64,000 bases of DNA from Balanoglossus misakiensis. Its lineage: Eukaryota > Animalia > Hemichordata. The DNA is taken from assembly GCA_040954595.2 (NCBI GenBank), contig CM082588.2, positions 12,289,398 to 12,353,397 of the forward strand, written 5' to 3'. Positions 1,376 through 31,985 of the stretch are shown here, piece by piece. The position numbers and the translations under genes were made by a program. How positions within the stretch are numbered: position 1 is the first letter of the stretch; every line of letters begins with the position of its first letter. The notes under the pieces were generated by a model that searched no databases, was not told the origin of the DNA, and saw only the letters and a program-made list of their open reading frames with translations.

Positions 1376-1611
1376 TGTATTTCCCCATGTTTTAGGTCTC
1401 CATTTTGATTCACAATTTCATGTCAACAAGTTCACATTCTACCACCACATCACATCTACACATCAACTATCACTGTGATAGAAGCTACCATTTTCAAGTT
1501 AAAGATATACAGTCACCGCAAATTTACATACACCCATATATGGCTGAAATAGATTATTTGCGGGTTCTAAATAACATATGGCGGCGCTCTTTTTTTTCGC
1601 ATGTGCCGCCC

Positions 1612-3089
1612 TACGGCGCGCCAAGTGTTTCAAAATTATTTATCATTATTTTATAGAAAATTGATGTCTTTTAACAAAAAAATACGTAAAAACAGAAAAA
1701 ACTGATTGGTGGTTTAAAAAACGAGTGTAAAAAGTAATCCATCGTGGAGTAAAAAAAACAACAACAACAACAACAAAAAACTAACACACAGAGAAGAAAA
1801 TCTCACCTGTTGTCAAAAAAAACCCACCAAGCTTACCAAAAAAACGTCCACAAGGCAGTTGCAAAAAAAAAAAATCACTAATTTGTCACAAAAAAAACAC
1901 GCGCACATTTTTCACGAAAAACGCACACTTCACAAAAAATACACACAAAGTATTAAAAAGAACACTCTTTGAAAAAAAAGAGAGACTACAACTTTTAAAA
2001 ATGCACACCCCCAGAACAAACAACACAGGCAAACATAGAAAAAACACGAACATGTTAGCCATAAAAAACGGAGATATTTGTCACCGAAAAAAAACCCCGC
2101 ACTCATGTCACCCAAAAACTAACGGGCCACTTTAAAAAACGCAGATGCACTGAGGTTGCAAAAATAAGCACATTTTTAATCCCCCGAAAAAAAAAACAGG
2201 CAATTTGAAAAAAAAACACACAGCAATTTGCAAAAAAAAAAAAAAAAAAAAGGAACATTTGTCACCCCCCAAAAAACATGCAATTTGAAAAAAAAACGCA
2301 GAGCAATTTACCAAAAAAAAAAAATATAGGAACATTTGTCACCCAAAAAAACCAGGCAATTTGAAAAAAAAAACGCAGAGCAATTTGCAAAAAAAAATAT
2401 AGGAACATTTGTCACCCAAAAAAAAAACAAGCAATTTAAAAAAAAAAAAACGCAGAGCAATTTGCAAAAAAAAAAAATATAGGAACATTTGTCACCCAAA
2501 AAAAAAAAACAGGCAATTTGAAAAAAAAACGCAGAGCAATTAGCAAAAAAAAGAAAATATAGGAACATTTGTCACCCCAAAAAACATGCAATTTGAAAAA
2601 AAAAACGCAGAGCAATTTGCAAAAAAAAAATAATAGGAACATTTGTCACCCAAAAAACAGGCAATTTGAAAAAAAAAACACGATATAAAATTTGAAAAAA
2701 AAAATATATAGGCACATTTGTCTCCCAAAATATTCAGGCAGATCCAAGTTGTAAAAAATGGTATATTTGTCATCCAAAAAATAAAATAAGCGTGTTTAAA
2801 AAAACGAGCATTCAGTTGTAAAAATAAATAATAGTCTTTAACAACTTGAAAAAAAAAAACGGACGCATTTGAAAGAATAGCGTATGCGCATGCGCCGAAA
2901 AAAAAAATGAGTGAGAAATCCTGGGGAATAAATGCGCATGCGCAAAAAAAAAAAAAGTGAACAATCCTGGCTGAAAAAAAAAAGTGAGAGATTTCGGTAG
3001 AGGAGTCTGGGTAATATTTGAAAAAAAAAAAACGGAGTCTGAAAAAAAGTTGAATTGAAGAAGAGAAAAGAAAGGGGAAACGCACAAAC
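1612..3089 (+). repeat. Left terminal inverted repeat (~1.48 kb) with internal ~77-bp A-rich tandem array
   Basis: Colinear reverse complement of 20662-22274; aggaacatttgtcacc recurs at ~2251, 2328, 2401, 2481, 2561, 2635. Confidence 0.93.
2885..2944 (+). promoter_or_regulatory. Two NRF1-type motifs (TGCGCATGCGCA) at inner end of left TIR; candidate promoter of cargo genes
   Basis: tgcgcatgcgcc at 2885-2896 and perfect palindrome tgcgcatgcgca at 2933-2944. Confidence 0.5.
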
Positions 3090-3569
3090 AACTGCTAGGT
3101 GTCGAGATACGTGGGAGTGAACTCCGAAGCATCTTTTGGGCATCATCGTTATCAATCGACATCCACAAAAGGTGTGTATCATCTGTATGTTATATTTAAG
3201 TTTATTTTAACCGTGGATAGCTGCAGTGCATGACAAGTCGTTATTTTGCATGGATTGCATCATGTTTAAAAAATCATGTTATCGAGTGAACTTTCTTATT
3301 CTACTATTTCCGAAGTATAAAAGTTCAGTTGTGTCTTTTCGCATCGTTTCGCATATAGTTAGCTCTGCGTGACAGGGCTGTGTGACGAAGATCGACGCAC
3401 GTTTTGAGTTCGGAATCGGCCGTTTTTGGTAAGGAAACCATACCGCAACAAATCCGTTGAGTTTCGCCAGGTTTGGCTATGTAGCTTAGCAGGGCTGTGA
3501 TTGGAGGCGTAGCCGTTAACAACACACAGCCCTGGTAGCTAAATTCCCACCGCTGGAGTGATGTAACAG

Positions 3570-4022: not shown

Positions 4023-7000
4023 ATGGATAATACACAAAGGTCAGAAATACAAAGAACATTGGACTCAATGGACACACTTGAAGTAAGAACAGCCGTAAAC
4101 AATTTATTTAGGGGAAGAAGGCAGCCAGCTCAAGTACAACAATTACACAACACACCACATAACACCAGCCGCGCACAAAATCCTAGGACACATCAAGAAA
4201 AACTGCTGTATTTCCTCGATCCACAGCTGTATATTTACCCAAATCAAGAATGTACCATATGAAACTGTGTGTCCTAAAATATGACGAAGCAGTCATGATT
4301 GACACAACAGGAACTGTACATAACTGTGATGGAGACTGGCTTTTCAAAGGTGACATTTGCTTAGAAAGTAAATGGAATGATATACAGGTGGAGCGAGAAA
4401 TACAGAACATGATAAGCCTTGCATATCCAAACTATATGGAAAAATTCAAGTTTGTGGATGTTCCACGCAAGGGTTCAGTCCAGTTACGAATCGTTTCCCG
4501 CTCATTCAAATATACGGCAAAAGCAGTATGGGATACAAGGAGTTTGAATAAAACCATCTATGTCATGCTTGATTCAGAACATGACCACACCCAGGAAACT
4601 GCCAGCATTCAGCATTATCAGAGGTGTTCAAATGTTGTAGATACATATAACAGTACAGTGACTGCAGACGCGTCCCTCCAGTCCCCATCCATGGTACTTG
4701 ATGAAGTCACCACTGAGATTGAAGGAAATACTACTACTTTGCAAAGCCATGATGATGAAAGATATGCATGCACTACCGTTGTCCAACCTCTTCAAACAGA
4801 AAATGATACAACTATACAGCCTTTAAGTTTCACATCTAATCGGGCCATTGAAGACACTGTGCCATCTCCAACAAGTGAATCAATAAGATTAACAAGTACA
4901 ATACATGATGATACAACAATGCAGCTAGTGCCTTTAAGTTTCCCAGACAGTGTATCCAATCAGGCGAGTGAAGACAGGCCATCTCCATCAAGTGAACCAA
5001 TGGGATTAACAAGTACAACTCATGACACCCTATGCAATGGACCTCAATCAACCACTGGACAGAGTCCAATTGGTAGACAACACCACCAAATGGAAAGTAC
5101 TGCCAAGAGACATAAAGGAAATCCAAAGAATGTAAGTATCCTGCTCAATAAGTCTTCTCATGTTGTTTAGTTTCAATAAGAGAGCTGTGCTCAGGCTGAT
5201 GACGTGCTTGTGAGTGAGTGAGTGAGTATGTTTATGTTTGATCAACTGTACGCATCACAATTTTTTAATACAGCTGCTTCAATTCAAAATTTATGAAAGA
5301 TAAAAATGAAAATATGGAAACTATTTCTTTGAATATTGTCCTGCCCCCCCCCCTGACAAATTCCTAGGGGGTGCTAACATGTCAACAGGTGAACCCCTTT
5401 GGTCGAATTGTGTTAACATACAAGTGACATTGACAAAAGTCACATAAAGACAATTAATGCCATGATTTTCTTATTTGTAGGAGTGCACACTGAGAGACAT
5501 GATTTGTACTGATGGTGCAGAGCAGCTTGTAGATTACGGTAATGTGAACCTAAGTACTTATTCAGCAAAGACACATTCATCCTTGTCAGAAAAAGTAAAC
5601 ATGCATGATCAAGGGAGATGTAGTCTGATGTAGATTGAGTCATGACTTTTGAATATAAAAAAATGACGTTCTTGCCCTCAGTAAAATTTACTTGAATTTG
5701 CAAGATAAGATCAGTTGGTGCACATGCATATATTGTTCAAATGTCCATTATGTACTAGAATCCAAATAGTAGTTTAGCTGTGCCGATCTTCAATAAAATA
5801 AAACCTAAGGTTTGATAGCACTCTGAGATCCCCTAATTTCTTATGTTCCAGCATAAATCAGTTGATCTCAGTGTGATCAAATCCTTAATACTTACCAGAT
5901 TATGACCCCTCAACTTCTGACCTTTAGCCATTCTGCCATTACATGTAATTTCAATCATGCACTCTTGGCTTGTTAGAAATGTCTGTGCCCTTCTTTCCAA
6001 GAAAACAAGAAACTTTAAAAGGATGGTGACGGGGATATTGCCTTGTTGATAATTGAAACAAATTACTAGCTTCCACTATATGTAGTGTGTTTCTCACAAC
6101 AGGTCTACCAAACCCTGGCAATTACTGTGCAGTCAATGCGGTGATACACCTTCTTGCATGCATAAAACCAATTATGGAATGTTTATCTGAGGTGGTTTCT
6201 GGTGGTCCATGTATTGAAGCTGTCATTGAGGTATGTCAAACTTTTCATTTCAAGTTATGCAAATTGTCTTTAGGTATTGCAGACTAAATGGGCATTACGA
6301 TGACCTACTGAGTCATATGATTAGGTCCCATTGGTATAGGCATATATACCATGGGACCTTATGGGATCGGTTGCGTCTGTATGTATGTATGGATGGATGG
6401 ATGGATGGATGTATGGATGTATGTCTGTATGTCCGTCCACATCAAAAACTTGAAAACCGCTGCGCGTATCACCTCAATATTTGGTGTGTAGGTGCAGGCT
6501 GGGCTTTAGATGGGAGTTTGTCCAAACGAAGTTGCCAGGCCCAAAAATATGCAAAATAGCTGGAAAAATGTGAAATTTATCAAAACTCTGAAAGTCAACA
6601 ACTACTTGTCAGATTGCTTTAAAAATTGGTATGCATGTACCACATGTCAACTTCACATCGACCTGTAAGTGTTAAGTTAATATAATGGATGTTTTATTTT
6701 TTATGAATTTTTTAGTCTTTTTATTAAATTTATACCTTTACTTATATCTCTATGGTTAAGCTATGTCCACGTCTTATTGTGGAATTCTGGTCTGTGCAAT
6801 AGTCCTGTAATGTGACTGTCTATTGGTCAGTGAGCACAATGGGGCCAAAATAAAAGGCAAAATTTTGGGCTCACCTGTAACACCTGCTTAACATATTAAT
6901 TATGTGCTTGCCTAATTCCGGGCTAACTAATAGGGCTAGAGGTTTCGTTCTTGTGGGACATGGACCAGTATAGGGTCAAAATTTCTTGCCAAAATTTTGG

Positions 7001-10000
7001 GTGACCTCAGGTGACCTTTGACCTACTTTCCTATATCTCGGCATCCAGAGCAGGTACAGACTTGGCGTTTGGAGGGTTGGGACTAAAATTGAAAAGCCAA
7101 CATATTGGTCACCTGTGACACCTGCATATCTCATTTATTATGTGCATACCTAATTCCAGGCTAACCAATAGGGCTATAGGTTTGGTTTTTGTTGAACATG
7201 GACCAGTATAAGATCAAAATTTATTGCCCAAATTTTGCATGACCTCAGGTGACCTTTGACCTACTGTATCATATCTTGGCATCCAGAGCAGGTACAGACT
7301 TGGCGTTTGGAAGGTTGGGACTAAAATTGAAAAGCCAAAATTGGGGGTCACCTGTGACACCTGCATATCTCATGAATTATGTGCATACCTAATTCCAGGC
7401 TAACCAATAGGGATATAGGTTTGGTTTTTGTTGAACATAGACCAGTATAAGGTCAAAATTTATTGCCCAAATTTTGCATGACCTCAGGTGACCTTTGACC
7501 TACTTTATCATATCTTGGCATCCAGAGAAGGTACAGACTTGGCATTTGGAAGGTTGGGACTAAAATTGAAAAGCCAAAATTTGGGGTCACCTGTGACACC
7601 TGCATATCTCATTAATTATGTGCATACCTAATTCCAGGCTAACCAATAGGGCTATAGGTTTGGTTTTTGTTGAACATGGACCAGTATATTTGTCACCTGT
7701 GACACCTGCATATCACATTAATTATGTGCATACCTAATTCCAGGCTAACCAATAGCGCTATAGGTTTGGTTTTTGTTGAACCTGGACCAGTATAGGGTCA
7801 AAATTTCTTGCCCAAATTTTGCATAACCTCAGGTGACCTTTGACCTTCTTTTCCATATCTTGGCATCCAGAGCAGATATGCTTATTGCTATGTTGCTATG
7901 TGCTATGTTGGCTTGGGCCCGCTGCTTGCAGATCTGCTTGCAATGTCACCTGTAATTTTTATTCTGGTGTGTCACTGTTTCCACATAATCCTCAAATGGG
8001 ACCACAGTGTCCTTGACGCTATTTTTTTATAATTGTTTTCGCAATTTTCATGATAATTCATTATTTGTTATTATTCTTGACGTTATGTTTCTGTCAGTAC
8101 ATGCAGTGAATTGGTTTGTATTCATTCAAGGTAATATGTCACCTTTGACAGGTATTTTGATGTATTATACTTTTTTTCATATAATTACAATTACAAAATT
8201 AACTTAACAAATACTCTCCATTACAAAAGATTAAAGCTTATGACTGTATTCTTTAAAAAATAGTTATTGTGTGCAGTCATAGCTTCTCACTTCTAATTTT
8301 ACTGAAGTGAGCAAAGTTGTCTCTCACAGCATATAACAATTTACCTTCTTCTATGCCATAGGATGGGTTATATACTTGATATCAGTATATGGTAGTGTCA
8401 ACATTATTAAGCCAAAAATATAATATCAGGAATTTTCATAAAACACTTTTTCATCTATCATTCCCATTTAAATCTAGATGATATCTTTGATTGGTGAAGA
8501 GGATTGTTTGGCAGAATACGAAACAGCAGTAAGCCATTTCCTCAAGTGTATGCCACGGGATATGGCTGGCGGTGGGTATGACCCTGCAGAAGTGTTGGAC
8601 GAAACCTTGAAAGTGTTGTGTACAGAAAATGAGGTACAGTATTTTCAATCTTGTCTGTGTTAATTGATTTTAGGTCAGTCTTACATTTGTTCTGATAATG
8701 TAACTGTGTCAAGTTTGTCGGACATGAACCAGCAAAAATTTATTTAAAAAGTTTTTGGTTACCTTAGGTGACCTTGACCATCTTTCTGATATCTCATTAT
8801 CTGGCTCAGATACAGCTTTGGAATTCCGTGGGAACCACTTGGGCCCCACAAACCATGCCTGTAGATTTAGATTTTAGGTCCAATTTGATTTATATGTACA
8901 TATATACCATGGGACCTTATGGGATTGGTTGCGTCTGTATGTATGTATGTATGTATGTATGGATGAATGTATGTCTGTCCACATCAAAAACTTGAAAACC
9001 GCTGCGTGTATCACCTTGATATTTGGTGTGCAGATGCAGGCTGGGCTGAAATGGGAGTTTGTTCAAATGAAAAATTTGAATTTGGTCAAAACTCAGTGAC
9101 TCAAGAACTACTGGTCAGATTGCTTTGCAAAGTGTGTGTATTTACTTTATTGAGTTCTTTGTAATTAGGCAGGAACCCCCTCCTGATATTTATACACACA
9201 GCAAATTCCTGCATGATAACATAACTGGCTAAGTTTTAAAGATGCCAGCTGTTCTATTTAGTGTATGTACAGTACATATGCCATTGGCAGCTTATGGGTC
9301 AGTCAGTGTTTGCTCTTTGATCTCTCTCTTTCTCTATGTGTGTGTGTGTCTGTCTGTCTGTCTGTATATGGCCATGTACTCTGGTGTAGACATTTTCTGG
9401 TGTAATCCCTCAATGGGACCACCGTGTCCTTGACGCGATTTTTTTTCTTCCAATTGATAGATTTTTTCATTCGTTTCATGTTTTATAGCATTTAGCACAG
9501 GTAATCCAGACAACTTTGGCAGGTACACGGAGACGGATCTGGATTTACGAGGATGAGGAATTTGAAGACGACAGTTATCGTCATATCCTTTGTTTGACCC
9601 TGCTGTTATAAGGGATTTAAGCTGTAACTGTTTGCTCTATTTTCAGTATTTTTGATCAGTGAATCAATTGCAGTTTTGTGGTCCTCTAACAACAGCATGC
9701 CATTTCTAGTACTGCACTAATAAACATAGGCTGTATGTGTGTAACGTAACATTGACCATTGTTATTGTTGACAAATAAATTCTTGTCCAGACTTTAATTA
9801 CATTTTTGAATGTGGGGCATTTCTTCATACTATAAGGATTTGAACAAAAAACTGCAGGAGATAAACAAACCAAAATTACCTGTACTGAAAACATCGAAAA
9901 GTTACAGCTAATTTCCTGACTTAAGTATATATTTTTGTAACAAACTAGATTCTTCATGTTGACGAGACCAGTGTTCAAGTGCATATATATCCATAAATAC

Positions 10001-11781
10001 TGTTGTACACAAACTCAGAAACTATGAATGGTTGTATGGTGATTTTATCACGCATATATAAAGTAAAAAGGTTGCTGCCCTGTGGTAGTAACTAACAGAT
10101 GGTGAGATAATGTGTTTTCAAGAAGTAGGGGTGGGCATTAATTTGAAACTAAATTGGGCAGACCTTTTCAGGGTGTGATCATTTTATAGGGAAAAATATA
10201 ACAAATGATACTGACATCATTGATTTTGCTGATGATTGTCAATTTAATATTCAGTTTTCCTATACATTACCTTGATACACCCCTGGTACGTTCTTCAACT
10301 AAACCCAGGATCATCAATTGACAGTATGCTAAATCATTTTCTCACAGAGAGAATGATTTATTGTTGGCGAGACATTCCTTCTAATGTGAAAGTCCAAATC
10401 AAAGACAGCATAGACGGAGCACCTGAACCTTCTGAACGTATGTTTTTTTATTTATTTGATTATACATGTACACTTAGTTACTTTGCTATATGTTTCACTG
10501 TTACAAATATAGAACTGAAAATATAGTTAATTTTCATAATTTCTCTTTGAGGGGTCACTGTATAAATATTGACATTGTCACGGTATCAATTTACCCCCAG
10601 AGATACTACAGAAGTAGAAACCCTTAAATGAAAAAGTGATTGTCATTTACTCTACTTTAGGGAGAAGGGAGGAAAAGGAACATCATTTTGTTTGTTTTCT
10701 TCATTATAGATGACAGCGTAAAGCATGTTGACTTCTGGGTAACAGAACCCAATTTAATATGTTTGGGGATTCACAGAAATGATGGTTATGGCAATAAGGT
10801 AGGTTTCATACTTTCTGTAGACTGATCATAAAAATGTTAATTATCAAGAGAAAGTGAAGTATAATTCATTGCACCACAACATGTGACTTTTGCTGTAGTT
10901 GCTATAGGGCATAAGCTCCAGGTCATGAATGATTTGACAACTGAGATGAGACACAAGGATGCTGATCAATGCACATACAGTAGCTGGGGCCAGTGCAGTA
11001 TTGTCTTCTACATTTTTCTAAATACAGTCAACCAAAAGAATAAGTAGCTTCTTTTATCCTAGGTAGAGCAAATGATTTAGGATAAATTTAAATTGTATAC
11101 TATTAGTCTTTGAAAAGTTTGATGCTTTTGTGATATTACAGGACAATAGGAGTATAAAAATTCCGAGGTCGATGACTGCTGAAGCACTGTTGTCTCCACA
11201 AGATTTCCCTGCATTCTGGTCACCCCCTGATATGGAAGTCACTGCCATAGTTGTGCATTCTGAAATAAGGGGCCATATAATGTTGTTAGTAAAGAAGGAG
11301 GCAGATACATGGTAAATATAGTCTGTTTGCTATGTTCTTCTTTGTCATCATTTCGTGTGTAAAGCTGTTAAATACTGAAAAGAATGAATAATCAATAACA
11401 GATCAGTTTTAGTGAAATTTAGTCTGTGAAGCCTCTTAATTGATGGTGCTCATGAGAACATGTATGTAATTGACTGCAGAAAAGTGATAATTGATATAAT
11501 TTTACAATTTCTTTCTTTGACAAATTACAATTAAAGATAAAGTTTGAGTCTCTATGCATGTTATATTAATGTGTTAAAACTTATCAAATTCCCTGCTATT
11601 GTTAACACATCTCATTTGTTTTTGTCTGTTCAGGGTCATGTATGATGATGACCATGTAACTGAATTTATCATGACTTCTGCCATTCTGAAGTATCTACAA
11701 GGAGGCAATCAACAAGACAGTGTCAATATCCTTTTTCTCTTGAAACCAGAACAGACGCACGTTTCTTGTTACTTCATGTAA
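4023..11781 (+). CDS. Multi-exon USP (peptidase C19) deubiquitinase-like gene; probable frameshift near 4180-4250
   Basis: Phase-compatible GT-AG exons 4023/4250-5131, 5481-5538, 6103-6230, 8478-8633, 9489-9579, 10255-10437, 10710-10798, 11142-11311, 11634-11781 give Cys box YGLPNPGNYCAVNAVIHLL, QQD-like box GGYDPAEVL, PNLICLGIHR, His box AIVVHSEIRGH, WVMYDDDHVTE and terminal NILFL. Confidence 0.82.
6321..8028 (+). mobile_element. Helentron-associated (HINE/DINE-1-like) non-autonomous element with ~240-bp central tandem repeats, in a USP intron
   Basis: 5' ttaggtcccattgg plus inverted copy ccatgggacctta, GTAT/GGAT microsatellite, central repeats (cacctgtgacacctgc at ~7110, 7349, 7588), 3' aatgggacc plus stem-loop gtgtccttgacgc and T-run. 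Confidence 0.65.
8874..9446 (+). mobile_element. Second, shorter HINE/DINE-1-like copy in a USP intron
   Basis: Same 5' module (ttaggtccaat...ataccatgggaccttatggg, GTAT repeat) and 3' module (aatgggaccaccgtgtccttgacgcgattttt) as 6321-8028. Confidence 0.65.
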
Positions 11782-12092
11782 CATGTTACAAAAAACTGTT
11801 GATTTTATAGTGGATAAAGTGATCAGTACACAATAATTTTTTGATGTATTTCACAAGTGTCTCAGTGCAGTCCATTTTAGAAATTGATACAAGCTCTGCA
11901 GTTAATGTCTGTTTGTAGGTGATCACTATTACACAGTCCTTGTGTAAACATTAAACTACCGTACACTTTGAAAATAAATAGAATATCAGTACTTTCAAAG
12001 AAAACTTTAAAGGCTGTAAAAGTGATGAACATGTAGTCATTCTAAAATGGAAAATAGAGTTTTGTTTGTCTTCCTTAATTACTCACTAATAG

Positions 12093-15000
12093 CTGTGTAC
12101 TCAAAGGCCGAAATGTTCAGTCCTTACCCTTCAAAGCTGAGTGATGCTGTGAGGATATCTGCTAAAGAAAGGTATTTTCCTGGTGACAAAACATCCAAAC
12201 AAAAGTTTTAGTTGTATGCAAAAGGACAGAACATAACATCTTTCATTTTTTTGCACATTCTATGTAATCAGGCAATATGTGTTTACTGTATCAAATATTC
12301 TCATTCGACATTGTCTAGCATTCTAATATGTTACCACAGATCTGTATGTGTGAAGACTTTTCATGATATGTCCAATGTTTTTCTTCATTCTGGCAAGAGG
12401 TAAAGGTTATTGTCGTAATCAAAGCCTCATAATGTCACTGAGTGTGTACATGTACTATTGTACCACTTTTTTCTTTTATTTTCCCTGCAGACTTCAGGAT
12501 TCTGTTGACTTGAGACAAATAAGTTGTGGATTAGGTAAATATTTATCATATGATAACAAACCATTTTTGTCCTTGCTGTTGAAAATGGAGGGATAAATGG
12601 CTTGTTTCTCATGGAAAAATGATAATATGTGACTTCTATATTTGATGTTGTTAATTTAGAAGATTTCCCTTCTGTACTGCTTAGGGACAGAGTTGATATG
12701 ACAGGACGTGTTTTTTTTTCCTTTTAAAAGAGTTGAATAGAGAATTGGTCAGAAGACGAGTTGGGAGAAGACTAAAATCTGTTGTTGGGATGGAGGATAT
12801 TAAGAAGAAAGTAGAAAAGCTTGCCATCTGCGCAATAAACAACAAAGCCCGGAGTACAATTAAGAAACAAGAAGAGGAGCCCCTAAATTTATTATTTTAT
12901 GGGCCACCAGGCACAGGCAAAACTATGTTTGCTAGGTTGCTGGCAGGTATGTTTCTTTTTGTGTCCATTCAATCTGTTACAATGTATAGAACTCATTAAA
13001 CTTTAAAGCTGTAAATTTGTTTTCAATATTAAAGCTTCAGTATTTCTCGTTTTCGCATAAATTTTGTTTGAAACGGCATCTTCAATTTCTAAAAGTACAT
13101 GATAATTGATTCTGAATCTAACAGTTATCATGCCCAGCTCTGTTCATAAACACATACAATTTACAATATAACGAGTGAAGAATGACTTTCTGTCCGGACA
13201 GAAAGTCAGGCTCTGTGGACACACGTGACTACTGCGCATGCGCACTCAAATGTGAATCTATGCGGAAGAGGTTTGGTCGCCCCAAATCTAGCGCCTCAGC
13301 GAAGAAATGCGCACTAATTCGGCGAAATTCTGGGAAGATAACTATATGGGAGAAATCAGTCGATGGAACCAGATCAAATCTGAAAATGGTCTGACATCAA
13401 ATATCAAAGTGGCACGTTTGCTGATCGAGATGTACAACATTTCCGTTGTAAACAAACCCGCGCATCATTTCAAGTGTTACGGGCAATATTTACAGCTTGC
13501 ATATAGCTACAGTTGCCCAAACCTTTCTTATATCTTCATTATGTAGTATTCCATGATGAATGTACAGGAAAAACGGGCATTTTTCGATGATGAAAAATGG
13601 ATACACACGAGAAATACTGGGGCTTTAACCTATAATTCTCAAATGTTTCAAAAAACACAATGCAAAAGTCAACACCCTTCGTAATTTAATGGTACAGTTT
13701 TCATTTCACAGAGTACCACTTTCACAGAACTGTGAGAAAATTAGTTTTACCTTCATTTTTATTACTTAATATTTTGTTCCAGGTGCAATATAAAGGATGA
13801 TACCATAATAGGAAATCAAGTTTTATTCAATGTATAAATAGAGAGTTTAGGGAGTATTCCTAGTTTCTTTCCACTTTGCATAGGCTGTACATGGTTATCT
13901 TATACCATAGGATTGTGTGTAAAAATGCAAGAAACCACCGATAAAATATTGTCATTTTCTTGAAATTGTCAGAAATAATTCAGAATGAGAATCAAAATCA
14001 ATATCTGCAAAAATAAAATTTATGTCAGACCAGCTTGAGTCTTGGAGTCAGCTCATCTAAAAACTCCTACCATGAAGATCTAAAGTGGGGAGAAGGGATG
14101 ACTCAGCAATTTCCTTTTTTTGGGGGGTCATAAAATTGTCGCTAAAATTACCATTGCTTCTCCAATAATTTCCATGTTTGTCTTTGAATCCACACGCACA
14201 ATTGTCATATAACTAGATGAAATGTACACAGTGAAGTGGTGAGGGGGGGGGGGGGTATTTCCATATCATGTAAGTCAAAACCTAGTCTGGTAATTTCTAT
14301 ATTCTAGATACAGCAATCGGTGCAGTAAATTCAAAAGCATTTTTAGTCATGGTTCTACTTTGTGCTTTGCCATTTCAGGATGCTTATATGATGTTGGTAT
14401 ATTAAAGGAAGAGAAAGTTGTTGAAGTACAGAGAGATAATGTTGTTGCTCAGTATCTGGGAGAATCAGAGAAGAAAATGAAGAAAAAGATCGAAGAGGCA
14501 GCTGGTGGATTGCTGTTTATTGATGAGGCATACTCACTATATAAAGGCAAATCTACGAAGGACTTTGGAGTTGACATAATAAACACCCTTATGCACTATC
14601 TCACTGGTGACTGTATGAGAGATACCCCAGTATTTGTTCTTGCAGGATATAAGATGGAAATGGAGAAGTTGCTGTCAGCTAATGAGGGTCTCTTAAGAAG
14701 GTTCAGGGAACCATGGATCTTCCAGCCATACACATCTGAAGATCTGAAACAAATAGTGTGCAACAAGTTGCTAATGCAGGGGTTCCAGTTTGAAAGTGGT
14801 ACTGATGGTGAGATCCTGGCCCTGATAGAGGCTGTACCGCCTGGATTGCGTGTGAAGTTAAATGCAGGACTTTGTGGTCGCATTATCGACTACATGAAGG
14901 ATAGCATCGATGATCGGGTTTGTAATCCATCCAACACGACAGAACTGTTACTTGTAAAGCTAGAAGACATACACAGTGTCAAAGAACAGCTGAGTGGGCA

Positions 15001-15241
15001 GTGGGTTGATGATCCCAAAACACACACAACCATTGGGATACAGACTGATCATGTGGAACTGACAGATAGTACTACAGAGATGATATCTATGAAATGCGTG
15101 AATGTCAATACACAGACAACTGGCCATGTGGAAACTGCACATACACATGCACAGACTGTGATGTTGGGTTCTCTGAACAAAGAGACGCAGACTGACCGAC
15201 TGGCGAAACTGATGATCAAGGGACACAGACATATCATGTAA
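12093..15241 (+). CDS. Spliced CbbX/CfxQ/SpoVK-family AAA+ ATPase (start uncertain; in-frame ATG at ~12113)
   Basis: Exons 12093-12171, 12491-12534, 12731-12946, 14379-15241 join in frame: VVGMEDIKKKV, Walker A FYGPPGTGKT, VEVQRDNVVAQYLGES, Walker B GGLLFIDEAYSL, LAGY, Arg finger NEGLLRRF. Confidence 0.88.
13029..13628 (+). mobile_element. 600-bp Kolobok-type element (possible KolobokP solo terminal repeat) in the ATPase intron
   Basis: ttaa-agcttcagtatttctcgt ... acgagaaatactggggct-ttaa; frameshifted ORF remnant RPKSS...RRNSGKITI/GEISRWNQIKSENGLTSNIKVARLLIE. Confidence 0.7.
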
Positions 15242-15317: not shown

Positions 15318-16188
15318 CAATCTGATTAAAATTAGATGTAGTGTTGGGCGCCATATTTACTTTTGCTGATTCTTGGCTGTTCTGTTAAAAAGAGACGCCC
15401 ACACTACATCTAAACCTATGCCATAGAAGATCTCAATCAGAGCGGTAGTCTCGGTTACCCAGACGCCTTTGCTCTTCCGATGCTCTCCAGAAAAGGGTCT
15501 GGGGAAATACTATTGAAAGCTTTGTAAAACAAAATGGCCGATGTCAGGATTTTGATCATCGCCTGCTTGGCTGAGCTGTCAGTATGACCTTGGTCACTGA
15601 TTCTCGACAATGTGTGATTATTTGTCATATCTTCATATCAAGAGACCGGTACTTGTTGGTTGATGCGAAAGGCAAAAGGCGTCCTCTGTTAGCATTGTTG
15701 GAGAAATTATACGAAATATCTTTAGTAGACGATTGTCGAAACTATTGCAGTGACCCGGGTCATACTGACAGCTCAGCCAATCAGGCGATGATCAAAATCC
15801 TGACATCGGCCATTTTGTTTTACAAAGCTTTCAATAGTATTTCCCCAGACCCTTTTCTGGAGAGCATCGGAAGAGCAAAGGCGTCTGGGTAACCGAGACT
15901 ATCAGAGCGGTTGTTTAGAAAACTGGAGGTGTGGAAAAACAAACAAACTTGAACAATAGAAGTTAGTTTCCAGCGCGTGGCCAGTTCCGAAGTGTTAGGA
16001 AAGCCGCTCTGTGATTGGTCGAATGGATCCATTTGCCAAAACTAGATGTTCTATGGCATAGGTTCAGAATGATGTAGTGTGGCACGTACACCAAGAACAG
16101 CCACGGCAGAGAACAGAACAGCCAAGTCAAAGACAGAGAACAGAACAGCCAAAGACAATGCCAAACTTATCTGATTTTAACCAGATTG
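15318..16188. mobile_element. Non-autonomous TIR element with ~9-bp TSD, hosting a nested MITE
   Basis: caatctgattaaaatt ... attttaaccagattg termini; flanks tatcaagag / catcaagag; inner IR aacctatgccatagaa / ttctatggcataggtt. Confidence 0.6.
15446..15901. mobile_element. Palindromic MITE with TAG...CTA ends and perfect 9-bp TSD (AcademH-like)
   Basis: tcagagcgg|tagtctcggttacccagacgcc ... ggcgtctgggtaaccgagacta|tcagagcgg; ~150-bp near-perfect arms. Confidence 0.8.
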
Positions 16189-16306: not shown

Positions 16307-17302
16307 GGTCATATTGTAATTCACTTACAAGCATTTAAATATTCTTATATGAAAATGAGTATTATTCTTATATGCAAAAATAGCTCTATACTATTATAGC
16401 TCCTATCACAGCCGTTTTAGTGATCTTTTTCACTCGTTTTTTTGTTTCAAAGCTGTTTTATTATTCCTTAAATCATGCTAGAAATAGGTGATCATTTTAA
16501 TGTGGATGTAATTTTGTTGATTAAAGCACCACATGGTTCTGACTCAGAAAAAGGTTTTTCTTTGGTTACTTGAATAGCTGTAACTTTTGACGTTTTTTTT
16601 TAAATTATTTAGCTTACCAATGCAACATTGACGTGTATACAGAAGCATTATTATTATAAATTGCATTCAACTTGGGACACAAAAGCATTTATCAAAAATA
16701 ACATCGGTCATTACACATGCACTGGCTATGTTGACAACCAGAACACGGCCATATGTAGTAGAACAAGAATCTGGTAATACACAGAAGCAGAATACGGATA
16801 AAACAGTAAAATGTTACTACTAATGTTGCTTTAAAATGGCATAAAGTACTGACCTGTGGTAGGGGAAAAAATTGGCATTTTCTGAAACCTTGGTGTAAAT
16901 GGATTGATAAAGGCACTACTTGTACACACCAGTGGACTTTAGTATTTCCATTTATTGACAAAAATCTTCAAACCAGGTCAAAATGTAGGTGTCAATCTAA
17001 ACACTGTCCCTGTTATTTTTTTATGTACAAGAAAACAAAGTAACTGCTACCTATATGATTTTGTGGAATACCAAGTCTGACATCAATAAATGTTTACAAG
17101 TTTTTTCTATGGTGTATTGAGCCATTAATAAAGTGTGTTTTTTTTTTTTGCAATGATGTCTTGTTGCTGTAATCAGAGCACATTCTTCAGTTCAGCATTG
17201 CCAGTTAAAAAGATACATTAAAATGTCAATGAATAATAACAATGTCGCAAACATTTTCATTTCTTCTTATCTCTTTGATAAATGGCCAAAGTACATTACA
17301 TG

Positions 17303-17649
17303 TTAAAGCCTCTGGAGCTGCCACTTTTGCATTATTTTCATGAATTAATTTAAATTGGTCCATCAAAATAAGCTTGCTGTTAGGTATAAACAAACATCTT
17401 ATCCATGCCTGATCATGGCTGTATATAGCGATCTGAAAACGCCATGTATGAAAACGGTGCCGCACCGATTTAATCAGCTTCCATACAAACAGTACGAGGC
17501 TATATTTGTATATGTCGCCAAGAGATGACAAACTGATGCAAATGCAAGTAATATGGCTTAATGGTGAGGATTTTAGAGGATAGGGAATATATTTGAAGTA
17601 TTTTACTGTGGAAAAAATATGCAAAATTTGGCAGCTATAGGGGCTTTAA
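17303..17649. mobile_element. Kolobok-type non-autonomous element, sibling of 1063-1375
   Basis: ttaa-agcctctggagctgcca ... tggcagctataggggct-ttaa. Confidence 0.7.
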
Positions 17650-17860
17650 AGGTATACAGTCTCCGATGCAAATTAAGCCACATGTACCAGCATGGAAAGT
17701 GGAAATTTAGCCACTAATATCTCTTGTTTTCAGTAGGTAGCCATGTGAAAAGAAGTGTGCCACTTCATCATGGTTATCAAAAGATTTATACACACCCTTG
17801 TAACCATACATGGGTAACCGGTATGTGTAAATTGGAGGTGATTGTATTTCTTTATGGATA

Positions 17861-20636
17861 TTAAAATGACATTTGTCTGATTAAGGAACATGCTCTAGTG
17901 TAAATATCAATACCCTTTTCATCACTTGCTGCTAATGGATCTATCCTTTCCTGTAGAGTCTGAAAACATTGCTCATAATTTGACAATTCAAATGTTGGTG
18001 ATAGCATTTCATTATTTGATTCTTCATCACTGTTGACAGTGATGTATTCTTCATCACTGTTGACAGTGATGTCAGTTTCCACTCCATAAGTGGCATAATC
18101 TATGTTCTCTGGATCTAACAGTTCTCTGATAGCAGTTTTATCAGAATTTTTGAATGCAGTAACACTTTGCAGCCACAGCTGATTCGGACTCAAATTGTGT
18201 TCTGTTTGCAATCTATGTTCATTCCAGCCTTTCCTAAAAACTGTCAGTGAATAATTTATACGAGGAAGAAAAACAAAATGAAGACACAGTATCTCTATAG
18301 GATTATCAGGATTTAAAAGACCCTGGCATTCCATCTGTAGAAAAACATCACGATAGTATTCCAAACAACATTTAAATGTATCTTGATGTAATCGTTCAAT
18401 TCTTTGATTATAAATTGATGATCCAACAATGTGTGAACCTCTGTTGTCTCCACGGTGTGCCAGCATGAAAGCTGCAACCGTTGTATTTTCCATCCCATAA
18501 TCAGATCTGACACGGGACGGAATGCCATATTCTTGCACTGCACCAAGGAAACCATCTAAAACAGTTGATGCCATCTTGTTGTTGGCAGCAATGAGGTAGA
18601 CAACTACTCTAGAATACCCATCTATTCCACCATGAACATATAGTCCCCATCTTTGTAATTTTTCCAGGCCATCTGCAAAAAATGAAATATGTATTAAGCC
18701 TTATGAAACTCTTGATAAATGTACACGTAGATCAATTCTATTGGCAAGGAGGACTATACATCACACACTTATTAATTAAGTTCAATATTCAGAAAAGCAG
18801 CAATCCACATACATAATTATGGTAAATGTTTCACTAAGAAATAAAATCAACATGGAAAAACAGCATCATGGCAATGATGCTTAAGCTAGCTTCAGATTTA
18901 GTTTGGCATTCAGTTTTGGTTTCGTGGGATGCAGGCCCACTTCATAAAACTGCATTTCCAGCTTCCTCACCCAAATTAGTCTTAAGTATAAAAAGAATAT
19001 GCTGAAAGACGAGTACACATGATCAATTGCTCAATGTATGACATGTACAACATTTTAGCACTTTAAAGTTATATTTAGATGTGGAAAATTATTTTTTTTA
19101 TCACATCAAATATGTACCTCAGAAGTGCATAATTGATTGGAATGTAAATTAAATATGAACACGGCCAAATGTGATCAAAATATTTTTCATTCTAAATAGG
19201 GTTTCCTAAACTACAACTATACAAATCAGCTCTTGATGCACAATTACTCTCCGTTACTCGAAACCGAAGATGTATCTGTATCAGACTGAGTCTAACTTAA
19301 GCATCTTTATGACAACTGTTCAATATTGAGTATTATATTATACCAGTATATTGATGGTGTAAATCACGCTATTTGATTGGTCGAGACACGACACGTGACC
19401 ATGGTATATTAGCCATATACCACAGTCATATATCTTAGTCAAAGAAAATGCCTTTTTAAAATGTTTTATGCAAAGTTTCAATATACTGGCATAATATAAT
19501 AGCAATAAAACACCCCCAGCCATGGTATACCACGAGATTTTGACCAGTTCGTGCGTATATGTCGTGAACTGGTCAAAATCTCGTGGTATACCATGGCTGG
19601 GGGTGTTTTATTGCTTAAATACAATAGTTCCATTTGAAAACATGCAGTGGTTTTAAGATTTCACTGACACGCATACACCTACATAGATAGATAAATACAT
19701 AAATAGATACATGATACATACATATTTACATGCATGCATGCATGCATGCATGCATACATACATACATACATACATACATACATACATACATACATACATT
19801 ACATGCATGTACGTACATACTATCTATCATAATAACTTTGTGTAATGTAAACTCTTACCAATATGCCATAAACTTTGTGCTGCCGCCACATTGTACACAC
19901 CATGCCTTTTACTTTTCATTCTCAAGAGTGGCCAACGCAGGGCTCGTTCAAAAGGTTCAATCCTCTGGAGACTTTCTCTTATTCGCTGTCTTTGAACGGA
20001 AACTTTCATAGATCTCAGAATACCTTCCACGATTCTTTCTCCGCAATGCTTAAAAGTCGATTCCTTGATTCTGCGTATGTGCATGTCAAGATCTGCATCA
20101 CTAATGGGATTGTACTTATCTGTGAAATCATACCCTAATGATTTCAATCTTCTCCATAATGTTTGACGAGATATTTGGAGCATTTCTGAGATATCTTTCA
20201 TTTTGAACCCGTATTCGATAAATAATTGTACCTTGTCATCAATATCATATGGTGGACGTCCAGGTTCACCAGTTCGAATAGTTTCAGTCTCAGATAGTCC
20301 ACAGTTCACATCACGAGACGTATTAACATTCCCAATCGTAACTCAAGAGCGAGGACTGTTTCCAGAGTTAGAGCTCCATATTTCCAAAACAGATTGCAAC
20401 GCAATATGTACAGAGTTCAAGCAATCCAGTAACAAATGAATGTCCTGCACAGAAACGGCCATTACATGGTGCTGCACCGCTTCTCTTATGTTCAGTGTGT
20501 AACGTATCATAGAGACAGTTCTCTCGACCATGTTACACACCACTCGCCGGTCATTTAGACCAGACGGTAACCTGTTTCTGTGGTCTGGAACAAGTATCTT
20601 CACTTCCTTCACGAAGGAATCCCATAACGGCGCCAT
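17861..20636 (-). CDS. IS3EU-type DDE transposase (HTH + integrase core), two exons, one in-frame premature TGA at 20343-20345
   Basis: Exon1 20636-19859 (GRPPYDI...ISEMLQISRQTLWRRL HTH, GERIVEGILRSMKVSVQRQRIRESLQRIEP), phase-1 intron, exon2 18672-17861; joined WHIDGLEKLQRWGLYVHGGIDGYSR, PSRVRSDYGMEN, NQRIERL, WNEHRL. Confidence 0.9.
19326..19618 (-). mobile_element. Double-inverted-repeat non-autonomous element (Crypton-like candidate) in the transposase intron
   Basis: Long palindrome agcaataaaacacccccagccatggtatacc...ggtataccatggctgggggtgttttattgct plus a second IR pair; other copies at 50498-51125 and 53079-53399. Confidence 0.6.
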
Positions 20637-20661: not shown

Positions 20662-22098
20662 GTTTGTGTGTTTCCCCTTTCTTTTCTCAACTTATTTTCA
20701 GACTCCGTTTTTTTTTTCAAATATTACCCAGACTCCTCTACCGAAATCTCTCACTTTTTTTTTTCAGCCAGGATTGTTCACTTTTTTTTTTGCGCATGCG
20801 CATTTATTCCCCAGGATTTCTCACTCAATTTTTTTTTCGGCGCATGCGCATACGCTATTCTTTCAAATGCGTCCGGGGTTTTTTCAAGTTGTTAAAGACT
20901 ATTATTTATTTTTACAACTGAATGTTCGTTTTTTTAAACACGCTTGTTTTATTTTTTGGATGACAAATATACCATTTTTTACAACTTGGATCTGATGGAA
21001 TATTTTGGGTGACAAATGTGCCTATATAATTTTTCTTTTTCAAATTTTATATCGTGTTTTTTTTTCAAATTGCCCGTTTTTTGGGGGTGACAAGTGTTCC
21101 TATGTTTTTTTTTTTTTCAAATTGCCTGTTTTTTTTGGGGTGACAAATGTTCCTATATTTTTTTTTTTTGCAAATTGCTCTGCGTTTTTTTTTTAATTGC
21201 CTGGTTCTATTTTTTTTTTTTTGCAAATTGCTCTGCGTTTTTTTTTTTAAATTGCCTGTTTTTTTGGGTGACAAATGTTCCTATTATTTTTTTTTTGCAA
21301 ATTGCTCTGCGTTTTTTTTTTAAATTGCCTGGTTCTATTTTTTTTTTTTTTTTTTTTGCAAATTGCTCTGCGTTTTTTTTTTTAAATTGCCTGTTTTTTT
21401 GGGTGACAAATGTTCCTATTATTTTTTTTTGCAAATTGCTCTGCGTTTTTTTTTTTTTAAATTGCCTGTTTTTTTGGGTGACAAATGTTCCTATTATTTT
21501 TTTTTGCAAATTGCTCTGCGTTTTTTTTTTAAATTGCCTGGTTCTATTTTTTTTTTTTTTTTGCAAATTGCTCTGCGTTTTTTTTTAATTGCCTGTTTTT
21601 TTGGGTGACAAATGTTCCTATTATTTTTTTTTGCAAATGCTGTGCGTTTTTTTTTTCAAATTGCCTGTGTTTTTTTTTCGGTGGATTAAAATGTGATTAT
21701 TTTTGCAACCTCAGTGCATCTGCGTTTTTTTTTAAGTGGCCCGTTAGTTTTGGGGTGACATGAGTGCGGGTTTTTTCGGTGACAAATATCTCCGTTTTTT
21801 ATGGCTAACATGTTCGTGTTTTTTCTACGTTTGCCTGTGTTGTTTGTTCTGGGGGTGTGCATTTTTTTCAAGTTGTAGTCTCTCTCTCTCTCTTTTTTTT
21901 TTACAAAGAGTTTTCTTTTTAATACTTTGTGTGTATTTTTTGTGGGGGTGAAGTGTGCGTTTTTCGTGAAAAATGTGCGCGTGTTTTTTTTGTGACAAAT
22001 AAGTGATTTTTTTTGCAACTGCCTTGTGGACGTTTTTTTTTTGGTAAGCTTGGTGGGTTTTTTTTTTGACAACAGGTGAGATTTTCTTCTGTGTGTGT

Positions 22099-22132
<34 letters not shown>

Positions 22133-22274
22133 CCACGATGGATTACTTTTTACCCTCGTTATTTTTTAAACCACCAATCAGTTTTTTGTATTTTTTTACG
22201 TATTTTTTTTGTTAAAAGACATCAATTTTCTATAAAATAATGATAAATAATTTTGAAACACTTGGCGCGCCGTA
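20662..22274 (-). repeat. Right terminal inverted repeat (~1.61 kb) with internal T-rich tandem array
   Basis: Reverse complement of 1612-3089; NRF1-type motifs at 20791-20802 and 20839-20850. Confidence 0.93.
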
Positions 22275-23409
22275 GCCACCCACTGAAAATCCGTGATTGG
22301 CTAGATCTCAAGTTAACGTGGTAACTGTAGCTAAATTTCCATAGGTGACCGTATACCTTCTCTACACGTACTGTTGACTGACACACACAATCCCCTAACT
22401 CTCAACACATACATACAAAGACCCAACCCACTCCACGTGTAGTCTCCATGGCCATGCCACCTAGCCCGCAGGCTACCACATCCAAAAGCATACACACACA
22501 CAATACATGTCAATTTTACATGAGGAGCGGCTCATGTTCTTTATTCTAAACTTGAATGATATATAAACTGAAAATTTACCCCGCACCAAAACCCAGAGAT
22601 AAAACCCTTTTTTCAGGATAAGGGGAAAAAACTCTGGGAAAGCGTAGGTAATTCACCAACTTTACAAAAAATTCTATTTCTAAATTCATGCCTCTTTCTG
22701 CCTCACAGAAAGAAAATGTTGGAAGTTTTACAATACCAAGCAAAATTTGGTATTGTAGGTCTAAACTAAAACTGACAAAAATTAATATTTCATCTCTGAA
22801 TGAATAAAGTGTTCTCAATAAATCATAATAGGTTTGGTGTTACACTGTTCTAAATGTAGCATTTACAATTAAAGGGCAACTACCTGTAATTTTTGGTACA
22901 GAATTGTTAATATTGACAAATGCATTCAATTGACTTGAATACAATTGTTAACAATAACAATGCTGATTATGCATACCAGAAATCGTGGTGCATACATAGA
23001 CCAAAATTACGTACTGAAAAATTTATCAAATGTAACACATAGTGGACCTTAATGTCTATAAGAATGAATCTCAAACAATGTCACGTGAACGTAAAATATT
23101 AAATTTCATATTAAAATACAAAAAGAATAAAGTCATACTATTGAACACTGCACACAGCAGTTGAGTCTAAAGTGACTAATGTACTGGGGGCGATCCCAAA
23201 CAGAAACGGGTCATATAGTCATAAATATCCCCCACCCTTATAAAGACCCCTTTCTCCTTGGGATGGCTCCTGTGATAAAATGAAACTGTGCTAGACTTGA
23301 AGAGATATACGCAGGAAACCTCATCAGTTACAGCCACTGCGAAGACTTCATTGATGATCCCCCCAAATTGGGGGGGGGGGGGGGGGGGGGAATGTAGATG
23401 AATGTTGAA

Positions 23410-25100
23410 ATCTTCAAAAGCAAATTGAAAGTGTTTTACTGTCAAAAAAGTGTAAATAATGTGTTGCCTGTAAGCCATGATGCATGATCTCCATGCCATT
23501 CAATTTATTAGCGAATTTACTGATTTACTACCCTCCCCCCGAAATACAAACAAAACAAAACAATTATGAATATATGGCTTCTGCAAACACATTATTTAGC
23601 AAATTAAAATCTTATCTGATAAAGTCACTTGAAAAGTTGAAAGACCCTCTTAAATTGAGGAAAAAGAGGAATGTTAAAATGTAAAATAACTGAAAACTGA
23701 ATGTGTATAAAACTTCTTAAAAAGAAGTATATCATTGTAAATAATGTGTTGCCTGTAAGCCATGATGCATGATCTCCATGCCATTCAATTTATGAGCAAA
23801 TTTACTGATTTACTACCCTCCCCCCGAAATACAAACATAACAATTATGAATATATGGCTTCTGCAAACACATTATTTAGCAAATTAAAATCTTATCTGAT
23901 AAAGTCACTTGAAAATGTGAAAGACCCTCTTAAATTAAGGAAAACAAAGAATGTTCAAATGTAAAATAACTGAAAACTAAATGTGTATAAAATAGAGAAA
24001 ACTTCTTGAAAAGAAGTATATCATTGTAAATAATGTGTTGCCTGTAAGCCATGATGCATGATCTCCATGCCATTCAATTTATGAGCAAATTTACTGATTT
24101 ACTACCCTCCCCCCGAAATACAAACAAAATGGCTTCTGCAAACACATTATTTAGCAAATTAAAATCTTATCTGATAAAGTCACTTGAAAATGTGAAAGAC
24201 CCTCTTAAATTAAAGGGAAAAAAGAATTTTCAAATGTAAAATAACTGAAAACTAAATGTGTATAAAATAGAGAAAACTTCTTGAAAAGAAGTATATCATT
24301 GTAAATAATGTGTTGCCTGTAAGCCATGATGCATGATCTCCATGCCATTCAATTTATGAGCAAATTTACTGATTTACTACCCTCCCCCCGAAATACAAAC
24401 AAAATGGCTTCTGCAAACACATTATTTAGCAAATTAAAATCTTATCTGATAAAGTCACTTGAAAATGTGAAAGACCCTCTCAAATTGAGGAAAAAGAGGA
24501 ATGTTAAAATGTAAAATAACTGAAAACTGAATGTGTATAAAACTTCTTAAACAGAAGTATATCATTGTAAATAATGTGTTGCCTGTAAGCCACGATGCAT
24601 GATCTCCATGCCATTCAATTTTTTAGCGAATTTACTGCCCCCCCCCCAAAAAAAATACAATCAAAACAAAACAATTATGAATACATGGCTTCTGCAAACA
24701 CATTATTTATGTTCTTATAAAGGAAATTTTCATCAATAAAATCAAAGGACTGCAAACACTCAGACGATGCATAAATACTTGGCAATGTCAAGCCAAAGCA
24801 AATTACCTCGTCTGATACAGCCATTGGAAAAAAGTTCATTAAAGACCCTCGAACATTGAGGAAAAAGGCTAAAGACGTGCGTTTAAATAACTCAAAACTG
24901 TGTATAAAATAAAGAAAACTCCACAATGTGAAGTTTTTTTATTGTCCACAAAGTTTAAATAATGTGTTGCCTGTAAGCCATGTTGCATAGGCTCAATGCT
25001 ATTCAATTTAAGAGCAAATTCACCAATATATTCCCCCCCCCCCTGCCAAAAAAAAAAACAATTATGCCTATATGGCTACTGCAAACACATTATTTATGTA
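23410..25100. repeat. Tandem array, ~270-290-bp unit, ~5-6 copies, degenerate at the edges
   Basis: aaataatgtgttgcctgtaagcca recurs at ~23454, 23739, 24028, 24303, 24569, 24957. Confidence 0.9.
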
Positions 25101-25859
25101 TTTAAAAAGAAAAAAAATCATCAAAAATCAAAGCACTATAAACCTAGTAATCACACAATGCATATACATGCAACGATGCAAATGCATTAAAAGTGTGATA
25201 TAAAAATACGTAATTATGTCAAGTAAAGGCAAAATCATTAAGGTAATATTAAAGAACCTACTTGTGCACTGAGTCTGTTGATTGGGGCCGTCGTTGTGTG
25301 GGACTCGCTAGCAATGTGGGGAAAATCTATTGATTATCGACAGACTCAGTGGGCAAGACGTGACCATAAAATAGATATACCAACATATCAAACTGTTGAA
25401 TACTACGCAAAAAAAAAAACAACTAATGAAATGATCCCAGGAAACTACACTGGACTTGAAGGATCTATTGCAAGTTTTAGTGGACTTGAAGTATTTATTG
25501 AAATATTTTTCTCATCATGAAATTAAGTTAGTCATGCTAAACTATGGTATTATAAAAACATATTGCAATTGAAACCTTCTCATCTGTTATAGCCATTGGA
25601 AAAATTCATTAAAGACATACCCTAAAAAATAGGAAAAAGAACACAGACAGATAATAAAATCCTAAAAATTTAAAAATGCACACACATACATACCGTATTC
25701 TTTATTTATAATATGGGAAAGTACAACGGAGCAAGCGACAGACGCGCGCGCGCGCGCAAAAACATAAATTGCTTGAAGACGGACTGCAATCTTGGGATTC
25801 TTGGGATCTTGTAGAGAACCAGCTTCATCAGATGACCAAAAACATCCTAGGTGCGGAAA

Positions 25860-26872: not shown

Positions 26873-26907
26873 AGTACTCCGAGACATCCAACAATTTTGA
26901 AAATATT

Positions 26908-29625: not shown

Positions 29626-29659
29626 TGAATGTAATGTACTTCAATGGCTGGTTACTGAA

Positions 29660-31807: not shown

Positions 31808-31985
31808 TATCATTATCATCATCATCATCATCATAATCATCATCATCATCACCATCATTGCCATCATCATCACCATCATCATCACCATCACAACCGTCAT
31901 CAACATCAGTACAACCATCAATGCCATCACCATAACAACTAGCAATAATAATTAACATCAAAACTGCCAACACCATCACCAACAT
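31808..31985. repeat. (ATC/ACC)n microsatellite
   Basis: Direct reading. Confidence 0.85.

Follow-up and report, generated by a model that had tools for sequence, protein, structure and literature searches.

The window, that is, the whole 64-kb stretch of Balanoglossus misakiensis DNA analysed here, contains a 20.7-kb DNA transposon of the IS3EU/GingerRoot type, and the second gene of this element is predicted to encode a USP deubiquitinase half, an AAA+ module of the CbbX clade and a TQT tail. We propose, with about even confidence, that the product is a motor that de-tags and remodels a protein needed by the element, most likely its own transposase complex. A literature search returned no account of a CbbX-clade protein in any animal or transposon, and none of a USP fused to a CbbX-clade AAA module, although such a fusion may be mentioned in Repbase reports or in the Kojima review of 2019. 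The element class is already known, the window copy has decayed, and only two species besides that of the window have yielded members of the family to date. Within this scope, the gene places a CbbX-clade ATPase in animals via a mobile element, and a single-chain USP-AAA protein kept in two deeply split subfamilies offers a concrete handle on the role of the IS3EU second gene.

The element and its transposase

The preliminary description had placed the AAA+ gene inside a DNA transposon, and TIRs and a PF24764 transposase indeed surround it. The element comprises the following features.

1612-22274: whole IS3EU/GingerRoot-type DNA transposon, 20.7 kb, termini TACGG..CCGTA
1605-1611, plus strand: left copy of a likely 7-bp TSD, matching 22275-22281 at 6/7 bases
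1612-3030, plus strand: left TIR (1.4-kb class) with an internal tandem array of ~80 bp
17861-18672, minus strand: second transposase exon, encoding the DDE core, with one D at the splice join, the other at 18502 and E at 18397
19859-20636, minus strand: first transposase exon, covering the HTH region and interrupted in frame by a stop codon (20345-20343)
20708-22274, minus strand: right TIR
22275-22281, plus strand: right copy of the likely TSD

The terminal 16-mer of the element occurs once per strand in the 64-kb window. Of the 1365 columns in which the two TIRs can be paired, 43 (3.2%) are mismatched, and the alignment contains 40 gap runs. The flanks agree at 6/7 bases when read as a 7-bp TSD, with one mismatch, and at 3/6 when read as a 6-bp TSD. 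A 7-bp TSD is reported for 5/77 GingerRoot copies (PMC6839031), and the IS3EU definition in PMC10045372 gives TA..TA ends with a TSD that is usually 6 bp and in a minority 7-8 bp. The transposase is encoded on the minus strand in two exons of 529 codons in total and matches PF24764 (rva_4) with an E value of 8.8e-67. Compared by eye, its DDE-core motifs agree with the IS3EU rows in the PMC10045372 supplement, a table in which rows for IS3EU-1_SK and IS3EU-2_SK are present. The element also shows the TA..TA termini and TIRs of the group. Judged by the sequence of its ends and its transposase, it belongs to IS3EU/GingerRoot.

The resemblance extends to the TAYGG..CCRTA form of the ends, an integrase-like DDE core with the same motifs, a second gene in the opposite orientation and a likely short TSD. 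Fungal IS3EU elements share these ends, and their second gene, facing the transposase, encodes an alpha-kinase (PMC12730594). The partner gene on the plus strand and the transposase on the minus strand converge between the TIRs, so that the partner gene occupies the slot of the fungal alpha-kinase, although its USP-AAA-TQT content is different. Size also sets the element apart, with 20.7 kb and 1.4-kb TIRs compared with 3.9-12.9 kb and 100-150-bp TIRs in GingerRoot (PMC6839031), as does its likely 7-bp TSD compared with the usual 6 bp of IS3EU. IS3EU is presented as a two-protein element in PMC10853768. PMC11934779 counts acorn-worm families within the first ten IS3EU in Repbase and describes the group as widespread, with structure and function largely unexplored.

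The copy in the window is decayed and probably dead: a stop codon interrupts the transposase in frame, and exon 1 of the partner gene contains a frameshift. A possible non-coding first exon lies just inside the left TIR (3085-3171 and 4015). Both genes start near the inner end of a TIR, and the repeats may hold both promoters.

The partner gene forms one USP-AAA reading frame

The 12 exons between 5481 and 15241 on the plus strand form a single open frame of 713 codons, in which the USP Cys box, His box and Asp box are followed by a linker, the AAA module and the tail. All features below are on the plus strand.

4023-5131: likely first coding exon, with an N-terminal domain at ~4187-4588 and then a Ser/Thr-rich linker
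5481-5538, 6103-6230, 8478-8633, 9501-9582: USP N-terminal half, predicted catalytic Cys at 6126-6128
9583-10278: likely AT-AC (minor spliceosome) intron with a perfect donor 8-mer
10279-10437, 10710-10798, 11142-11311, 11634-11725: USP C-terminal half, predicted His at 11274-11276 and Asp at 11644-11646
11726-12086: AT-AC intron whose donor and branch point fit the minor-intron consensus
12087-12171, 12491-12534: exons of the USP end and the linker, separated by GT-AG intron 12172-12490
12731-12946: AAA N-terminal exon, Walker A Lys at 12919-12921, preceded by GT-AG intron 12535-12730
12947-14378: GT-AG intron dividing the AAA module
14379-15019: AAA core and lid, with pore-loop Tyr 14453-14455, Walker B 14522-14527, sensor 1 at 14642 and Arg finger at 14699
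15020-15241: tail predicted to bind LC8 through four xQT motifs, whose Gln codons lie at 15041, 15113, 15152 and 15188
16614-17043: Cys/Trp-rich coding-like segments in shifting frames, possibly a broken last exon

The AAA module had initially been described as a separate gene starting at 12093 and as a partner distinct from the USP. Neither statement holds, because the gene reaches upstream to at least 5481 in one open frame and both parts lie in one polypeptide. The exon in question most likely starts at 12087, directly after an AT-AC intron, instead of at 12093. By contrast, the gene was correctly recognised as a real spliced animal gene, and its three GT-AG introns (12172-12490, 12535-12730 and 12947-14378) are the top-scoring joins among 29, 27 and 69 in-frame alternatives, respectively, when scored against acorn-worm homologues. 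The splice support consists of RefSeq protein models of relatives, and it is from these models that we infer the splicing of the partner gene.

The AT-AC intron at 11726-12086 is the best of 26 in-frame joins against 3/3 homologues, and scores 211 against P0143 compared with 185 for the best GT-AG join. Its donor 8-mer occurs twice on the plus strand of the window, where 2.2 occurrences are expected by chance, and both lie exactly at exon ends. For intron 9583-10278, AT-AC and GT-AG alternatives score alike among 30 joins and the branch point is imperfect; the similarity of P0352 begins at the junction codon of this intron, which may be a hint of the boundary. The gene sequence thus contains one well-supported minor intron (11726-12086) and one likely minor intron (9583-10278), and this transposon gene appears to depend on the minor spliceosome. 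A literature search for minor introns in USP genes gave nothing usable. A candidate exon at 12341-12400 was dropped, since the join that omits it fits P0143 and P0122 best.

At the 5´ end, the ATG frame of exon 4023-5131 stops at 4260. Another frame is open from 4187 and continues in phase into exon 2; the frameshift lies between 4187 and 4260. The N-terminal domain at ~4187-4588 has Atlas feature matches of 0.90-0.91 to unnamed cnidarian and basidiomycete clusters, which we treat as a lead only, and its structure prediction has a pLDDT of 36. This domain may resemble the ubiquitin-like region at the N terminus of G2E3-like HECT proteins. At the 3´ end, the gene may genuinely finish at the stop 15239-15241, or this stop may lie downstream of a frameshift. 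A Pfam scan of the segment 16810-17040 gave no match.

The USP half and its fusion to the AAA module

Catalytic Cys, His and Asp boxes occur in the window protein in the order typical of USP enzymes, and deubiquitinase activity is predicted from this motif order. The His and the Asp are conserved in P0143, P0317 and P0352. The Cys box is visible in the window copy only, and none of the homologue models covers exons 5481-9582; against the PDB, the Cys-box exon gave no USP among its matches. P0352 exceeds the Pfam cut-offs for both UCH (38.1 bits, cut-off 23.9) and AAA. P0143 and the window exons, which were scanned singly, fall below the UCH (PF00443) cut-off, and exon 6102-6230 has a weak, below-cut-off match to positions 2-30 of this profile (E 0.076). 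All eight Atlas structure neighbours of P0143 are UCH-bearing clusters, including USP7-like clusters, at TM values of 0.41-0.49 by query for a model with a pLDDT of 0.57; the USP half of P0352 is poorly modelled (pLDDT <50). Compared with the USP deubiquitinases of PF00443, with which it shares the three boxes in order, the window USP is highly diverged and is joined directly to an AAA module.

The continuity of the chain is supported by relatives. P0143 of Ptychodera flava reproduces seven joins of the window gene at 73% identity with one 1-residue gap, and for P0317 of Saccoglossus kowalevskii the alignment begins at the USP His box, crosses the AAA module and extends into the tail. At the level of the gene sequence, USP and AAA are one polypeptide, of which the AAA module is the C-terminal half.

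The AAA+ module belongs to the CbbX/SpoVK/EccA clade

The initial assignment of the module to the CbbX/CfxQ/SpoVK/EccA clade agrees with its best profile and PDB matches. Exon 14381-15010 matches the profiles T7SS_EccA (E 1.5e-31), spore_V_K (1.8e-28) and cbbX_cfxQ (7.1e-26), and spore_V_K is the best profile match of exon 12727-12945. EccA1 and CbbX are the best PDB sequence matches, and a fold search with the predicted model of P0352 returned its best matches within the same clade. Scanned exon by exon, the window sums of 113, 138 and 139 bits are far below the NCBIfam cut-offs for CbbX (459), SpoVK (423) and EccA (467). On this sequence evidence, the module is a member of the CbbX/SpoVK/EccA clade, yet it is none of these three proteins in the strict sense.

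Walker A, Walker B, sensor 1, the Arg finger and the pore-loop aromatic residue are all kept in the window copy, and the Walker A Lys, the Walker B Asp-Glu and the Arg finger are conserved in 6/6 animal tree rows. In the Rhodobacter (R. sphaeroides) CbbX numbering given in PMC4580454, the pore-loop Tyr (14453-14455) aligns with Tyr114 and the Arg finger corresponds to Arg194. The same paper describes the His198 sensor as unique to CbbX; the corresponding residue is Pro at 14711-14713 in the window and Pro in 6/6 animal rows. The sensor-2 Arg position, where the lid alignment is less certain, holds Gly in the window; those animal rows that extend this far have either Gly or Ser. Retention of the pore-loop Tyr, as originally noted, is true of the window subfamily but not of the second one: 4/7 homologues (P0278, P0317, P0351 and P0352, forming subfamily B in both species) have His in the pore loop, together with Cys before the Walker A Lys. 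Because of these two replacements and the absence of the sensor-2 Arg throughout, the strength of threading is uncertain.

The closest sequence and fold matches are the red-type Rubisco activase CbbX (PDB 3syk/3zuh), SpoVK and EccA1 (PDB 9lur), with which the module shares Walker A/B, the pore-loop position, sensor 1 and the Arg finger. In contrast to these proteins, it has neither His198 nor the sensor-2 Arg, falls below the family cut-offs, is fused to a USP and stands outside any Rubisco, sporulation or secretion context.

The tail carries an xQT array

Arrays of xQT motifs follow the AAA module in 4/6 sequences examined, with 4 motifs in the window, 11 in P0278, 5 in P0317 and 16 in P0351; the short tails of P0121 and P0122, as annotated, contain none. 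The background in 429 other proteins is 0.07 per 100 aa. The four motifs of the window lie within 80 aa, compared with a shuffle mean of 0.46, and 1/2000 shuffles reached this number, a test that tandem expansion inflates. LC8 binds TQT anchors and dimerises its clients, according to PMC7861614. The window tail has the TQT-type anchors and low complexity of an LC8 client, and LC8 binding is predicted from its sequence. Panoramix and ASCIZ, multivalent LC8 clients in PMC7861614, likewise present several TQT-type anchors in a low-complexity tail; here, the array sits instead on a transposon-encoded enzyme, and its binding is a prediction.

Homologues form two subfamilies in two acorn worms

Seven named animal homologues were found among the matches listed, five from Ptychodera flava and two from Saccoglossus kowalevskii (XP_070556525.1, XP_070533303.1, XP_070559078.1, XP_070559511.1, XP_070564563.1, XP_002741888.2 and XP_077864566.1), and animals other than these two acorn worms are absent from those matches. 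The matches listed are the best 120 of 348, 150 of 16,027 and 120 of 3,102; they are crowded by multi-module proteins, behind which others may be hidden, and 23 proteins were looked up by name. The homologues divide into two subfamilies of ~40% identity, each with members in both species, and in the tree they group by subfamily and not by species. The USP-AAA join is present in both subfamilies and both species. P0121 and P0122, as annotated, are models that contain no USP, and P0278 diverges upstream of the linker.

P0121 and P0143 are identical over 104 aa and lie on P. flava contigs of 48.2 and 40.3 Mb; P0351 and P0352 are identical over 147 aa and lie on contigs of 47.3 and 63.0 Mb. Such identity on different large contigs suggests recent dispersal, as transposition would give. 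The association with a transposase is seen in one of eight sequences, the window copy, and the homologues are presumed mobile from their sequences. Among the matches listed, there is no sign that the family nests within a vertically inherited, transposon-independent animal family, the placement that would have contradicted the first description; all of its named members come from two hemichordates. Among viral, metagenome and prokaryote contigs, the matches listed reach 27-45% identity only and include no animal-type locus. Contamination is ruled out by the introns, the surrounding animal repeats and the RefSeq animal homologues.

Origin of the AAA module

From 1489 modules, thinned to 436, mixture-model trees of 73, 55, 59 and 66 rows were built. 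P0143 and P0352 were omitted as short, two degenerate EF-family modules were left out of all four trees and seven long rows out of the last three. The animal clade is supported at 100/99-100 in all four trees. In the three trees that include it, the sister of this clade is an unnamed EF-hand 5xAAA family (98/88; 98/97 without viruses; 95/73 with added bacterial modules and thinning), in a setting where three stems are long, bootstraps are unsettled in the 98/88 tree and in the tree without the EF-hand rows, and deep branches are poorly resolved. The 678-row FastTree gives the same sister at 0.81, with one long bacterial module inside. The family is represented by P0001, P0167 and P0176, unnamed proteins of ~1650 aa, each of which contains five modules of the CbbX type and ends in a pair resembling EF-hands (27.3 bits, below the cut-off of 30); our guess is that these proteins are eukaryotic.

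Giant-virus modules join next, at 98/95 in the 98/88-sister tree and 93/92 in the tree with added bacteria. A giant-virus origin is not claimed, as the adjacency is unsupported when the EF-hand rows are removed and is absent from the 678-row FastTree. Giant-virus MAG contigs with CbbX-type AAA modules (GVMAG names, L009-L074) account for 31 of 80 viral loci among the matches listed, and those included in the tree cluster in a single clade (100/100).

Because of its narrow range in animals, the module is likely of foreign origin. The label 'bacterial-type' is apt for the clade as a whole, but the trees point to no bacterial donor, with a named bacterial module as sister in 0/4 mixture-model trees; the phylogeny that had been recommended as a check gives no support for direct bacterial transfer.

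Proposed mechanism and alternative readings

In the reading that we favour, the AAA+ module would form a hexameric ring motor, as CbbX does, and would pull its substrate through while the tethered USP domains strip ubiquitin. The 26S proteasome, with its Rpt ring and deubiquitinases, and Cdc48/p97, with its cofactor deubiquitinases, similarly pair a threading motor with ubiquitin removal, and IstB, TnsC, MuB and the action of ClpX on Mu are examples of ATPases that aid DDE transposases. These machines consist of separate subunits from other AAA clades, and the comparison is a functional analogy, not one of membership. LC8 would cross-link the tails and thereby dimerise the protein (by analogy with PMC7861614). 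The transposase complex of the element is favoured as the target because the gene occupies the partner slot of a two-gene element. The predicted ATPase, deubiquitinase and LC8-binding functions can each be assayed and each removed by a point change.

The same element-owned fusion could instead act on the host. Its TQT array would sequester LC8 or attach itself to it, and USP and motor would clear ubiquitin marks and dislodge silencing proteins from element chromatin. This reading draws on Drosophila, where co-transcriptional silencing of transposons guided by piRNA requires LC8 to bind TQT motifs (PMC7861614), on the TET/JBP enzymes carried by fungal IS3EU and proposed to evade silencing (PMC12730594) and on xQT arrays of up to 11-16 motifs. 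The LC8-dependent complex, however, is known from flies, so that a hemichordate counterpart would have to be assumed by analogy, and domain profile scans of the fusion found no chromatin- or DNA-binding domain; we regard an anti-silencing role as unlikely. A hemichordate gene family might also have been captured as a passenger by this one element. GingerRoot elements are reported to take up pieces of genomic genes, introns included (PMC6839031), eleven introns, one or two of them minor-type, resemble those of an old host gene, and the presence of both subfamilies in both species is compatible with vertical descent of two paralogues. Yet the captured pieces measure 84-1654 bp in the same paper, compared with a whole 11-kb gene in the partner slot here. 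Both subfamilies show identical stretches on different large contigs, the matches listed include no other animal, and look-alikes of the N-terminal domain occur in two groups with IS3EU elements, the cnidarians and the basidiomycetes (a lead only). Capture of a host family seems improbable to us.

Direct acquisition of an independent CbbX-like gene from a bacterium, with introns gained later and the product acting as a separate remodeller, has only a slim chance of being correct. The clade is mostly bacterial among the named matches listed, and the best identity of the window module is 37.9% to a GTDB module compared with 35.6% to the EF-hand family, in a tree with poorly resolved deep branches. 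Against such an acquisition stand the fusion to a USP, the tree placement and the NCBIfam sums given above.

A bolder form of the element-owned motor, put forward tentatively and with more doubt than belief, is a single-chain 'deubiquitinate and unfold' machine that combines a USP taken from a host gene, minor introns included, a CbbX-clade motor from a protist or giant virus and an LC8-binding array. If this were true, the second-gene slot of IS3EU would be a swappable toolbox of ubiquitin and phospho-signalling functions, transposition would be under minor-spliceosome control, and host degradation or silencing would be countered.

Neighbouring DNA

Several other repeats lie within the element and around it. 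A MITE-like insert at 15446-15901 has 154-bp arms that are 98% complementary, and the partner-gene introns hold a repeat with a 239-bp tandem array (6341-7875 and 8899-9071). The transposase intron contains a repeat (19324-19621) that is 95-97% identical to several copies at 50495-53416. Between the two genes, 17405-17661 forms an 85% inverted match with 1051-1297, which lies beyond the left end of the element; the two are likely copies of a dispersed repeat unrelated to it. To the right of the element, 23400-40400 is occupied by satellite arrays with units of ~91, 172, 228 and 277 bp and a long ATC-rich array. An ORF on the plus strand at 43344-43826, with a weak Arrestin_N match below the cut-off (E 0.004), is possibly a host exon. 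The minus strand at 55407-61369 carries the coding region of a Gypsy-type LTR retrotransposon, with a PNMA/gag ORF and a 1242-aa RT-RNase H-integrase ORF.
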